NCBI GenBank assembly: GCA_038247415.1
Contig: JBBRUX010000040.1
Span: 1-36,498, forward strand
Length of the DNA: 36,498 bases
Origin: Chitinivibrionales bacterium
GTDB taxonomy: Bacteria; Fibrobacterota; Chitinivibrionia; Chitinivibrionales; WJKA01
Reading direction: 5' to 3'
Shown here: positions 28,503-32,960 of the stretch, piece by piece
Layout: each line of letters starts with the position of its first letter
Numbering within the stretch: the first letter of the stretch is position 1
The notes under the pieces: model-generated
What the model saw: only the letters and a program-made list of their open reading frames with translations
The model's database searches: none
What the model was told of the DNA's origin: nothing
Made by a program: the position numbers and the translations under genes

Positions 28503-28916
28503 ATGATAATGTCTTCTGGCATATACAACCAATATACAGGTTATCATAACCGTCGTTCAATCCGATTGCCTGGTTACGATTATACCCGACCGGGATATTA
28601 TTTCGTAACGGTGTGCATTCATGATCGGAAACAACGATTATTTGGTGATATCCATGAGTTAAAATGCGATTCCATTTCCGCAGGGGTGGGTTCCAAACTT
28701 GCCCCTCTTTTCCAACAATTCACCCCGAATCAATACGGCCAAATAGTTTTGTCAACGTGGAACGATTTGCCAAATCACAATCATCAAATAAAATTAGATG
28801 AATTCATTATCATGCCCGCCCCAACAGTGGCGTTATCGGAAATTATTCGACAATTAAAAATTTTTTCAGCGAAACGAATTAACACTGTGCGACAAACGCC
28901 CGGGACCCCGGTCTGA
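28503..28916 (+). pseudogene. REP-associated tyrosine transposase (RAYT, Y1/HUH family), inactivated
   Basis: RRSIRL.GYDY...G.YFVT.C N-terminus; FIIMP is not followed by NHxH; TGA stands where the W of the WQ motif is expected. Confidence 0.88.
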
Positions 28917-29463: not shown

Positions 29464-29826
29464 ATGGAAGATCTTGATCTTGGCAAACTTTACGCCATTC
29501 ATCTGGAGCCTTATAATCCCGCTTGGGTTGGGCTTTTTGAAAAGGAAAAGCAGGCTCTTGCGCAAATATTAGAAGACCTCGCCCAACGAATCGAACATAT
29601 AGGCAGCACGGCTATCGTGAAGATAATGTCGAAGCCAACGATCGATATCCTTGTAGAAATCCCTCCTGGTCATGATGCTTCTGAAACTATTACGAAGAAA
29701 ATGGTTCGCAATGGTTACATTCATATGGAAGAGCAGAAAAAGCAGTGCGAGATGCGGGCATCAATGCATTATTTATTGGTCAAGAGATTTGTTCTCGCAA
29801 TATCAGTCTTATACTATTACGAATGA
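29464..29826 (+). pseudogene. GrpB family nucleotidyltransferase-like protein, 3'-truncated
   Basis: PYNPAW..FE.E, IEHIGSTA and KPTIDI motifs; family-like sequence ends after ~93 aa, with the C-terminal half missing. Confidence 0.75.
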
Positions 29827-29837
29827 AGCAATAAGTA

Positions 29838-31799
29838 TTAACTTTCCGCAATAGCCGCAACCCTGTCGATACCAGAATTTACTTCTGCAAGTGTTTTGGA
29901 TATATGTCGAGCAATTTCCTGGGTAGCAGCGGATTGTTCACCAATTGAGTTTGTAATATTAGAAACTATCTGATCTGCTTCATGCATGAGCGTTACCATG
30001 TCGTTTACATTATGAATTGCTGCGGACACAGACTGTTGAATTCCCTGTATTTTACTTTTAATGCCCTCAGATGAAGATGCCGCCTTACGTGCGAGCTCTT
30101 TAACTTCGCTTGCTACAACTGCAAAACCCTTTCCAGCATCCCCTGCAGAAGCTGCTTCTATTGTGGCATTTAATGCCAGAAGATTTGTTTGCGAAGAGAT
30201 ATCGCTAATCGTTTTAACAATAGCGCTTATTTCTTGCGCCGCATTGCCAAGTTGTTGCATAATATCCGCTACCGTGGTAGCCTGGGTGCTCATGGATGCG
30301 CTTGAAGCTTTTGCCGTTTCGGAATTTTTTGCAACTTCACTGATAGTTGCACTCATTTCTTCGGTTGCTCCAGATATTGACATGAGGCTATTAACAGATT
30401 CGCCCAAGATTGCTTGCAGCTCAGTAACTATGTTTTTTCGATATTCATTTGATTTTTTTGAATTATCTTCTGTCATTTTAATAATGGATAATTCTTGGTA
30501 GTGCCTGCAATGTTCTGCTTTATTGAGACCATTAAAAATGGCGATGGCCATGCTTTCGCAGTTTCCATACCCACAGGCGCCGCAATTGAGAAAATCTCTT
30601 TCCTTAAATTTATACATTTTTTGATTGATCTCATCGATTTCCTTTTGAGACGGGGTGCGTACACTGTCTTTAAGGAGTGAAGATCTATTTATATAGGTTC
30701 GCCCATAGAGACCGGGTTTCCAATGGGAATCGATATAGTTATGCAATTTTTTGATTCCGCGTTTTTTACCCAAAATGCCCGAGTTTTTAAGATATTCTTG
30801 CTGCGCGGCTTTATTGCGCCCTTCAATAAGATGCTCAACTTCATCAATTGATTTATGAACATTAAGAGTACCAGGACCTCCGTTACAACCCATTTCGCAA
30901 TTGAGACAATCTACAAGGAGTGGGGCAGACCTATTTTTAATGGATTCTGTAAAGTGATCGAGGTAGTGATAAATAGTATGCCGTCCCTCGATTTTTCGAG
31001 CAGATGCTATAACGCCCGGTACTTCGCGCTGTGCAGTCCGTAATAGTCCGCCCGGAGTAGAAAAGAGCACTGCCCTTTCGGCTTCAGGGTTATCGTAGGG
31101 AGTTTTATCATATTGATTCAGGGAAATTGAGTTCTTTAAAAAGTAAGCATCGAGGGATTTAAATGTCACATTGTAGTCTCCAATGCCCACTTCGTCAAAT
31201 TCACGACGTTTTGCATAGCAGGGAGAAATAATCACAAATTTTGCACCTCTATGCTGCGGGTAAAATTCCCGTACCATGCGCATGGTATGCATCATGGGGC
31301 TATCTGCCGGGGCAAGATAGGGTATAAGTTCCGGCCGATGGAGCTCGATGTAGCCTACTAATGCAGGGCAGGGTTGTGCTAAAACATGCTTAAGCCCAGC
31401 ACTTTTAATAGCTTCAAGATATGTCTTAACTGTCAATTCGGCTCCAAAGCTGACATCAAACGAGGCTTTTACGCCCATTTTCTTAAGCCACCCATTAAAT
31501 TGCAGGTATGCATTGGGAAAATTTGCCGCAACAGCAGGCGCAACAATAGCCACAATATTTTCGTTGCTTTTTAATCCCTGCATAAATGCATCAAAATCGT
31601 CAATCCCACTGCGTGCATTATGAGTGCAAGCTGCAATACAAGCTCCACAACCAATACACAAATCGGGGTTGATATTTATAAAATCACCAGAACCATCGTT
31701 GCACATTTTAGATGGGCATACCGCAATACATTGGTGGCAATTTGTACATTTATCTTTATCGATTTGAATGAGAGGTTTTAGAGTAGATTGTGGACGCAT
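29838..31799 (-). CDS. [FeFe]-hydrogenase-like sensor fused to an MCP signalling domain (group C2-type architecture)
   Basis: Two CxxCxxCxxxC ferredoxin motifs; H-cluster-like AQPCP, SPCYAKRRE and LNCEMGCNGG; CGACGYGNC FeS domain; QTNLLALNATIEAA..GKGFAVVA tip; no TM helix. Confidence 0.9.
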   Translation of the reverse strand: MRPQSTLKPLIQIDKDKCTNCHQCIAVCPSKMCNDGSGDFININPDLCIGCGACIAACTHNARSGIDDFDAFMQGLKSNENIVAIVAPAVAANFPNAYLQFNGWLKKMGVKASFDVSFGAELTVKTYLEAIKSAGLKHVLAQPCPALVGYIELHRPELIPYLAPADSPMMHTMRMVREFYPQHRGAKFVIISPCYAKRREFDEVGIGDYNVTFKSLDAYFLKNSISLNQYDKTPYDNPEAERAVLFSTPGGLLRTAQREVPGVIASARKIEGRHTIYHYLDHFTESIKNRSAPLLVDCLNCEMGCNGGPGTLNVHKSIDEVEHLIEGRNKAAQQEYLKNSGILGKKRGIKKLHNYIDSHWKPGLYGRTYINRSSLLKDSVRTPSQKEIDEINQKMYKFKERDFLNCGACGYGNCESMAIAIFNGLNKAEHCRHYQELSIIKMTEDNSKKSNEYRKNIVTELQAILGESVNSLMSISGATEEMSATISEVAKNSETAKASSASMSTQATTVADIMQQLGNAAQEISAIVKTISDISSQTNLLALNATIEAASAGDAGKGFAVVASEVKELARKAASSSEGIKSKIQGIQQSVSAAIHNVNDMVTLMHEADQIVSNITNSIGEQSAATQEIARHISKTLAEVNSGIDRVAAIAES

Positions 31800-31849: not shown

Positions 31850-31878
31850 AGTATAGCATTGCTCAATTTGAATGTCGA
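31850..31878 (-). promoter_or_regulatory. Sigma70-type promoter of the hydrogenase-MCP gene
   Basis: Minus strand TCGACA-N17-TATACT with extended -10 TG. Confidence 0.55.
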
Positions 31879-31905: not shown

Positions 31906-32960
31906 TTATTCGATCTTACATTGCCCGAGCAGGCTTTTGAGATTTTCAGATAATTGCGCAAGCTCATCTGCACGATCCTTTACATGCGCTATGCCACTGG
32001 CTGTGTCTGCGGCTTCATGGCTTACGCCGGCAATGGTTTTAGTAACCTCCCCAAGACCTTGGGCAGATTCCGAAACGTTTTTGGCAATTTCTTGAGTTGC
32101 TTTGCTTAATTGCCCGCTACTACGGGCAAGGTCATTGACGGTTGCAACTTGTGTGGGAGCTGCAACCGTTTGCACACTTTTGGATACCGATCCAAGGAAA
32201 TTTCTGAGCGATGAATTCATCGAGGTCATTGCACGAAACATTATCCCAATTTCATCCTTTGTTTCAAGACCATGCACAGGAATATCCTTGGAAAGATCAC
32301 CGCTGCTTATTCTGTCAAGTTCTTTGCATGCCGATTCAAGAGGGGCTGCAATACGCTTTCCAGTTAAATAGGCCACAAACACAACAACCAATGATAATAG
32401 GCCAGATATCGAAATGGCCTATAAAAGCATCGTGCGCAAGGCAGCATTAACGGTAGAAAGGGAAATATCCAAACCTACAACGCCATTTAAAACATGTTCT
32501 TTTGTGTAAATGGGCGCATAGGCACTCAAAAAAGTACCCCATTCATCCGTATAAAAAGAATTTTCAACAAGAGGTCGTGTGCACGATTTGGTAGCCTGGA
32601 TCAGGAGGGGTGTTGCATCGTCAGAGGTACTTCCGCAGGCCGAGCGATCTTTTACATTTTCTTCGGCATCAAGAATAAATGCAATTTTTCCGCTATCATT
32701 CATACGGCAGGTATACACAAATTTGATATCGGAACTGTTATTTCGAAATGCCTGCAATTTTTGGACAAGGCGGGAGTATACTTTGTTTTTTTTATGCTCA
32801 TTGTAAAGGCCTTTGTGTTTGACTTTTGGAATGATTCGGTTATGCTTTATTTCAAGCATTACGAGATGAATTCTGAATTAAGAGTTTAGCATGTAGTGAG
32901 AGGATTGTCGATATAATAGTAGGAGCTAATCAATGGCTGAATTAACGCAGATACAGGTGC
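31906..32960 (-). pseudogene. Broken membrane chemoreceptor (Cache-like sensor, TM, HAMP, internally deleted MCP domain)
   Basis: ORFs 32419..32859 and 31906..32391 share one frame split by a TAG; YTDEWG.FLSAYAPI sensor, GDL..DEIG HAMP, hairpin tip absent; 5' end frameshifted and boundary approximate. Confidence 0.8.

Follow-up and report, generated by a model that had tools for sequence, protein, structure and literature searches.

A soluble [FeFe]-hydrogenase–chemoreceptor fusion of group C2, a candidate H2 sensor, in a Chitinivibrionales bacterium

We analysed a contig of 36,498 nucleotides from an uncultured sediment bacterium of the order Chitinivibrionales (GenBank assembly GCA_038247415.1, contig JBBRUX010000040.1; this whole stretch is called the window). 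On its reverse strand lies a gene whose product, P0001, joins a ferredoxin domain, an [FeFe]-hydrogenase-type H-cluster domain, a further iron–sulfur domain and the signalling hairpin of a methyl-accepting chemotaxis protein (MCP) in one chain (Table 1). Judged by its motifs, P0001 is a plain member of group C2 of the HydDB classification of [FeFe]-hydrogenases, an ordinary representative of a widespread class catalogued in 2016.

Table 1. Features of the fusion gene and its surroundings in the window (aa, residues of P0001; TM, transmembrane)
Feature	Position	Strand	Remarks
Group C2 [FeFe]-hydrogenase–chemoreceptor fusion gene, P0001	29838..31799	-	653 aa
2x[4Fe-4S] ferredoxin domain, N-terminal, aa 11-63	31611..31769	-	Pfam Fer4
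H-cluster domain, aa 81-309	30873..31559	-	Pfam Fe_hyd_lg_C and fold match to solved [FeFe]-hydrogenases
L1 motif AQPCP, aa 141-145	31365..31379	-	C144 cluster ligand; Pro143 replaces the proton-transfer Cys
L2 motif SPCYAKRRE, aa 192-200	31200..31226	-	C194, K197 and E200 kept; Ser192 for Met
L3 motif DCLNCEMGC, aa 297-305	30885..30911	-	C301 and C305 ligands; Leu299 for Met; extra Cys298
C-terminal Cx2Cx4Cx16C [4Fe-4S] motif, C406/C409/C414/C431	30507..30584	-	Pfam FeS PF04060, aa 404-432
MCP signalling hairpin, aa 432-653	29841..30506	-	Tip D554; methylation-site motifs E480/E481 and E621/Q622
Sigma-70-like promoter candidate TCGACA-17-TG-TATACT	31850..31878	-	10/12 match, TG before -10, 50 bases upstream of ATG
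Broken upstream membrane MCP gene, same receptor class	31906..32877	-	Stop at 32419-32421; tip deleted
Truncated GrpB-family gene	29464..29826	+	Converges 12 bases from the fusion stop; 78/159 profile positions

Domain layout and pocket of the fusion protein

The reading frame opens with ATG and contains no internal stop, and the gene is intact, as the original prediction had held. That prediction had described a soluble one-protein fusion, and both the Pfam matches and the hydropathy profile agree with it. Fe_hyd_lg_C scores 110.7 bits (cut-off 22.1) and MCPsignal (PF00015) scores 98.1 bits at residues 493–649 (cut-off 34.6), while the eight ferredoxin ligands (Cys 18, 21, 24 and 28; Cys 48, 51, 54 and 58) are all present in 120 of 120 homologs. 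A TM helix or signal anchor was rejected, with a highest 19-residue Kyte–Doolittle mean of 1.43 compared to 2.99 in a control membrane MCP. A truncated C-terminus was rejected as well: 100 residues follow the tip, whereas 11 of the 12 closest homologs have 95–99 there and the remaining one has 117. The tip is intact, the methylation motifs stand 74 residues before and 67 residues after it, and the tail aligns with one heptad less per arm than Tsr-type receptors.

An AlphaFold model of P0001 (mean pLDDT 88.7, pTM 0.73) gives the same layout. Its residues 4–374 match [FeFe]-hydrogenases (Z 36.5, root-mean-square deviation 2.8 Å, 347 residues aligned to CbA5H), and its helices 432–551 and 553–652 form a two-helix hairpin that starts directly after the C-terminal cluster. 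No solved structure of group C or D was among the sequence or fold matches.

The pocket was compared with the host's own group A HydA and with solved enzymes, where AQPCP, SPCYAK and DCLNC align to TSCCP, MPCTAK and EVMAC. These alignments confirm the three motifs as originally read and the retention of the four cluster cysteines (C144, C194, C301 and C305) and the L2 lysine (K197). The pocket had also been called non-canonical, which holds relative to group A enzymes only; within group C2 it is the standard pocket. Of 8000 candidates scored in a search with residues 1–440, 4529 matched. The top 120 matches are 56–71% identical to P0001, and an MCP domain is listed for 119 of these and a PAS family for none. 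Across all 117 aligned homologs, residues Q142, P143, C144, S192, P193, C194, K197, E200, F246, G250, G251, D297, C298, L299, C301 and C305 are invariant, together with the four C-terminal cysteines. A unique or degenerate pocket is therefore ruled out, since P0001 matches both the C2 consensus and these homologs.

Two further cysteines, neither of them a standard cluster ligand, recur among the close homologs: Cys298 (window 30904-30908) in 120 of 120 and Cys33 (window 31701-31703) in 119 of 120. The Firmicute C2 rows of HydDB have Ile, Val or Ala at the position of Cys298.

The residues nearest the bridgehead position (P143, F246, L252 and L299) include none that is protonatable, from which we infer a very low turnover, fitting a sensor. 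By our reading, P0001 has Leu252 where group D has its relay Glu252, and Asp297 where it has Glu289, a correspondence mapped from the primers printed in the excerpts of PMC10407848. According to excerpts of PMC10055695, about 10% of sensory sequences carry Pro at the position of the proton donor and about 32% have Ser at that of Met353.

The proposed assignment to group C2 was borne out when the motifs of P0001 were compared by eye with the 25 C2 reference rows of HydDB, inspected over their first 400 residues and not aligned. QPCP occurs in 19 of the 25 rows, SPC in 21, and DCL(N/S)C in 8, these last from spirochaetes and Thermodesulfatator. Across the first 400 characters of every row in the HydDB table, QPCP appears 20 times, 19 of them in C2 rows and once in a [NiFe] row. 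The output domains of the C2 rows are MCP (19), histidine kinase (3), diguanylate cyclase (2) or none (1), and the MCP fusions span 560–706 residues. P0001 has the four H-cluster cysteines, the QPCP/SPC/DxLxC signature, the MCP fusion and the two N-terminal [4Fe-4S] clusters of this group. It also has the marks of the sensory groups C and D (M2f/M2e), namely loss of the proton-transfer cysteine (P143) and a C-terminal Cx2Cx4Cx16C motif (C406/409/414/431), which excerpts of PMC8163306 describe as common to both groups.

Membership of the other groups was considered and rejected. The group A catalytic profile TIGR02512 scores 91.9 bits against a cut-off of 405.95, and TSCCP, MPC and ExMAC are absent; the profile of the monomeric B1 enzymes of group B (TIGR04105) scores 138.5 bits against a cut-off of 450. 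Group D, the TamHydS type, is disfavoured by the MCP fusion and by Leu252 at the apparent place of the TamHydS Glu252.

Maturases, chemosensory partners and spread of the sensor module

The host genome is 96% complete and contains two H-domains, that of P0001 and that of a group A enzyme on contig C5, which is a bifurcating enzyme; no [NiFe] hydrogenase was found in it. The genes on C5 run hydC–kinase-like–hydD–hydB–hydA–aspA–hydF–hydG–hydE. The original prediction had named maturases, chemotaxis proteins and flagellar genes as checks on the host, and all three are present. HydE, HydF and HydG score above curated cut-offs, beside hydA/B/C. CheA, CheW, CheR and CheB were found, with CheA operons on contigs C19, C21 and C22, as were FliM and seven Flagellin_N matches. 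Inside the maturase cluster, an aspartate ammonia-lyase gene stands between hydA and hydF (L133:8198-10802, G000:C5), an insertion like one described for Pelobacter carbinolicus in excerpted literature.

Alignment shows the P0001 tail to be compatible with the host's main receptor class. Six of the ten other host MCPs share its methylation-site register and are its best matches (40–50% identity and 98–140 bits, compared to at most 74 bits for the rest), and two of these six sit in the C21 cheA–cheW operon. A same-order genome, G045, has an orthologue that is 61% identical to P0001 and gap-free over 642 residues, standing between an MCP gene and cheA–cheW–cheB–cheR–cheX–cheY, directly upstream of cheA. 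The best host match of the G045 CheA is the C21 CheA (895 bits, compared to 259 for the next), CheW behaves likewise (157 compared to 73 bits), and the G045 CheB and CheR match the pair on host contig C56.

Two observations concern the CheA genes themselves. The likely partner (L131:12898-15765, G000:C21) has three CheW-like stretches, as does its G045 orthologue, and a further CheA-like gene on contig C76 (L134:2029-3752, G000:C76) lies in two overlapping frames (Hpt; HATPase–CheW) and is possibly frameshifted.

Beyond the order, the sensor was followed in a distant set of 80 loci, from which 50 genomes, of unstated completeness and chosen to thin the many Treponema, were tested for HydG, HydF, CheA and flagellin. 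Of these 50 carriers, 49 gave a match to the CheA dimerisation domain, one match being broken by stops. A close homolog from a named cultured species, P0004 of Chitinispirillum alkaliphilum, is 70% identical to P0001 in the sensor; excerpts of PMC4814513 describe this species as a flagellated obligate fermenter that produces H2.

Conservation is uneven along the fusion, with a median of 60% in the sensor compared to 27% in the tail, and a PAS-bearing sister clade is nested among the MCP fusions (support 0.999). Together, the better conserved sensor and the sister clade mark the module as an exchangeable input. At 7 of the 7 loci fetched (L168:6597-10168, L169:6025-9860, L170:6389-9891, L171:6137-9717, L172:7721-11283, L173:6539-10160 and L174:5014-8481), the gene immediately before that of the sister clade encodes a Hanks-type Ser/Thr protein kinase. 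The sister-clade genes are fused to PAS in the members scanned; this kinase pairing is absent from the HydDB C2 rows. Two other homologs (L099:4779-8636 and L100:5559-8552) have an N-terminal extension of 330–620 residues with no Pfam match.

Full C2 fusions were also found in two DPANN archaeal genomes (Nanobdellota, Woesearchaeota), at L057:5938-7938 (G068) and L079:3794-5656 (G082). Archaeal-type genes surround the first (bifunctional PGI/PMI, prefoldin beta, HerA). Che clusters are present in both genomes, and G082 has 13 archaellin matches. Neither HydG nor HydF was found in either genome. A survey of 130 archaeal genomes lists only groups A1, A3, B, E, F and G in the excerpts of PMC11216029, and the archaeal C2 fusions may be new.

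Proposed H2-sensing mechanism and its rivals

We propose that P0001 is an H-cluster-loaded, low-turnover H2 sensor that tunes the C21 CheA and, through it, the flagella, a reading that we judge probable while leaving it considerable room to fail. HydEFG would load the [2Fe] subsite into P0001, and the H-cluster redox state would then follow H2 pressure at low turnover, to be reset through the N-terminal ferredoxin clusters. Turnover is expected to be low because Pro, Ser and Leu replace the Cys, Met and Met of fast enzymes and the group A proton relay is lost. A conformational shift would cross the C-terminal iron–sulfur domain into the long helix that begins at residue 432 and continue to the MCP tip, which may join an array with the CheA and CheW of C21, while CheR and CheB of C56 would adapt the receptor by methylation; the output would most likely be flagellar steering. 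A conformational step is favoured over an electron relay because, in the excerpts of PMC13104023, H2 does not reduce TamHydS's C-terminal cluster while the secondary structure changes.

The host looks like an H2-producing fermenter. Its enzyme set (a single bifurcating [FeFe] enzyme and no detected [NiFe] enzyme) and the physiology of C. alkaliphilum lead us to guess that the response would serve to avoid H2 build-up or to stay near H2 consumers.

Several points weigh against the proposed H2 sensor. Among the papers found, none shows a C2 protein binding an H-cluster, sensing H2 or controlling CheA, and no enzyme with Pro at the proton-donor position had been tested in the literature consulted, TmHydS and TamHydS having Ala. 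P0001 appears to lack the group D relay glutamate, and the cluster behaviour of TamHydS makes a simple electron-relay signal unlikely (PMC13104023, in excerpt). Within the fetched flanks of the 80 distant loci, counted with no background control, maturases occur at only 2 and che genes at only 10, so that the majority of loci stand as orphans. Eleven of the 50 distant carriers and the same-order genome G053 have neither HydG nor HydF. Thirteen of the 50 distant carriers gave no flagellin match, and the host's own C21 and C56 che clusters lie outside any flagellar operon.

The maturase counts bear on the strongest rival, which we hold to be unlikely yet a genuine contender: P0001 could be an iron–sulfur redox or O2 sensor for energy taxis or aerotaxis, whose [4Fe-4S] clusters would report on the ferredoxin pool or on oxidative damage; the [2Fe] subsite would then be missing or incidental. 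Three accessory clusters, the invariant Cys298, Cys33 and the unprotonatable surroundings of the bridgehead would all suit such a sensor, as would the carriers that lack HydG and HydF, one of which, the archaeon G068, has this protein as its only H-domain. Moreover, because a reversible H-cluster equilibrates H2 with ferredoxin, it may be difficult to tell the two inputs apart. Against this rival, K197 and the other residues of the diiron pocket are invariant in all 117 aligned homologs, and carriers within the order are enriched for HydG. We detected HydG in 23 of 24 sensor carriers compared to 19 of 36 other genomes, in a set of 60 same-order genomes that includes close kin and is not a sample of independent cases. 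Up to 20 candidates per genome were scored, so the carrier counts are lower bounds. Three genomes were placed among the non-carriers: G021 and G056, whose kinase fusions have GPC and about 31% identity, and G051, which matches in the tail only. The one carrier in which HydG was not detected is G053, 97% complete, whose three H-domains score as catalytic.

In the distant set, 36 of 50 carriers have HydG, 37 have HydF and 39 have either. Most maturase-lacking carriers also hold catalytic-scoring enzymes, with further [FeFe] H-domains in 10 of the 11 distant ones, and maturase-free [FeFe] enzymes are known (PMC11216029, in excerpt). Two sensory enzymes that also lack the proton-transfer cysteine, TmHydS (excerpts of PMC10055695) and TamHydS (excerpts of PMC8163306), can be loaded with the synthetic [2Fe] cofactor and show slow H2 turnover.

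A second rival keeps H2 as the signal and replaces swimming with gliding, pili, biofilm or cyst formation, or gene expression as the chemosensory output; we regard it as improbable. It draws on six carriers labelled Bacteroidales or Prolixibacteraceae (G067, G072, G086, G106, G108 and G109), all of which have the fusion and CheA and no flagellin match, with 8–12 MCP matches in the three that were checked; perhaps these use chemosensory arrays with another output, such as gliding. The last gene of the host C21 operon codes for a PAS hybrid kinase, and the C56 cheB/cheR cluster closes with genes for a hybrid kinase and Hpt. Members of the same sensor clade also occur as PAS fusions behind a Ser/Thr kinase, and 5 of the 25 HydDB C2 rows are kinase or diguanylate-cyclase fusions. 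However, the host has FliM and flagellins, all 18 same-order genomes that carry the MCP fusion have FliM (compared to 33 of the other 42), the orthologous G045 operon carries cheX and cheY, and the P0001 tail belongs to the majority MCP class of the host. These observations favour flagellar steering as the output of the proposed H2 sensor.

That this copy is a nonfunctional relic in a decaying region is very hard to believe: its neighbours and a transposase-like reading frame are broken, no terminator was found after it and none of the 6 same-family genomes yielded a match to it, but it is full length and gap-free against its orthologue over 642 residues, departs at only 4 of 144 conserved columns (family median 3, range to 11; 92 of 117 sequences at 4 or fewer), and 5 of the 6 same-family genomes lacking the sensor gave no HydG either.

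Both neighbours are indeed decayed, as had been noted: the upstream MCP gene has an in-frame stop before its second TM helix and has lost its signalling tip, and only a GrpB fragment lies downstream. An assembly artefact was ruled out, as another run from the same study, X3, has contigs showing both lesions in identical form; the tip-deletion junction is also present in run X4 of a second study. The inference of selection that the original prediction drew from these neighbours was overstated, the evidence being weak, and the alignment columns make conservation the better evidence of function. Its claim of a dedicated promoter found no support either, as a well-placed site exists (Table 1) yet 11 such sites occur in the region compared to 9.8 ± 3.3 in shuffled sequences. 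On the question of a recent foreign origin, the gene's GC content is 0.42, compared to 0.44 for the genome, and its third-position value (GC3) is 0.35, compared to 0.37–0.44 in seven neighbours. The broken transposase-like frame (window 28503-28916) has no Pfam match, and four similar fragments lie elsewhere in the genome; presumably it resembles a REP-associated or IS200-like transposase.

More broadly, it is conceivable, though we would not count on it, that C2 proteins are genuine chemoreceptors for H2, their H-cluster, with no proton donors close by, acting as a nearly non-catalytic H2 latch. The module would then be a portable H2 input, carried along with chemosensory systems into many bacterial phyla and into DPANN archaea. 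They would then be the first identified molecular receptors for H2 taxis. Taxis toward H2 was observed in Methanococcus maripaludis, with no receptor identified in the excerpts of PMC3817446. H2 connects fermenters with methanogens and sulfate reducers, and an H2-producing fermenter so equipped could leave H2-rich spots or find H2-consuming partners. With an H-cluster and a standard CheA read-out in one chain, such fusions offer the simplest test of signalling by sensory [FeFe]-hydrogenases. P0001 itself adds little to the catalogued class; the useful additions are its link to one CheA system, the maturase co-occurrence, the homolog from a cultured species and the archaeal members.

Comparison with known systems

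Group C2 was named in 2016 as 'Chemotactic (putative)', with possible H2 sensing through methyl-accepting chemotaxis proteins (Sondergaard, Pedersen and Greening; PMC5037454), and PMC9431212 restates this wording. H2 or redox taxis by P0001 is plausible; it is the hypothesis that HydDB already states and is not new. The sensory role of [FeFe]-hydrogenases is still called putative in excerpts of PMC8924675 and PMC13104023. In the open literature, to which the search was confined, subscription papers lying outside it, we found no experimental study of any C2 protein, nor any work on Fe_hyd_lg_C with a chemoreceptor or on Woesearchaeota with chemotaxis and FeFe.

Nothing essential separates P0001 from the HydDB group. 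The table lists PAS for every C2 row, whereas neither Pfam nor the model detected PAS in P0001; the entry looks generic to group C, as none of the best 120 homologs lists a PAS family and 119 list MCP. The host lineage is new to the group, an order of chitin and cellulose fermenters near Chitinispirillum, as judged by best matches.

A characterised relative is TmHydS of Thermotoga maritima (group C; excerpts of PMC10055695 and PMC8163306). Like P0001, it has two N-terminal clusters, no proton-transfer cysteine, a small residue in place of Met353 and a C-terminal Cx2Cx4Cx16C cluster, and it is a proposed sensor. Unlike P0001, it has Ala, Gly and Ser where P0001 has Pro, Ser and Leu, and Tyr where P0001 keeps Phe; its output is PAS rather than MCP, and it has been matured and characterised. 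TamHydS of Thermoanaerobacter mathranii (group D; excerpts of PMC8163306, PMC10407848 and PMC13104023) shares Ser for Met353, Leu for Met497 and accessory clusters with P0001, but has no fused output domain. Of its alternative proton path through E252 and E289, P0001 appears to keep only the second residue, as Asp297.

On the chemoreceptor side, Aer and Aer2 likewise place a cofactor-bearing sensor on an MCP hairpin that reports gas or redox state. Unlike P0001, they carry FAD (flavin adenine dinucleotide) or haem in PAS domains and have no H-cluster, and the similarity is confined to the MCP hairpin. HemAT, with haem in a globin domain, is a further soluble gas chemoreceptor of this kind.

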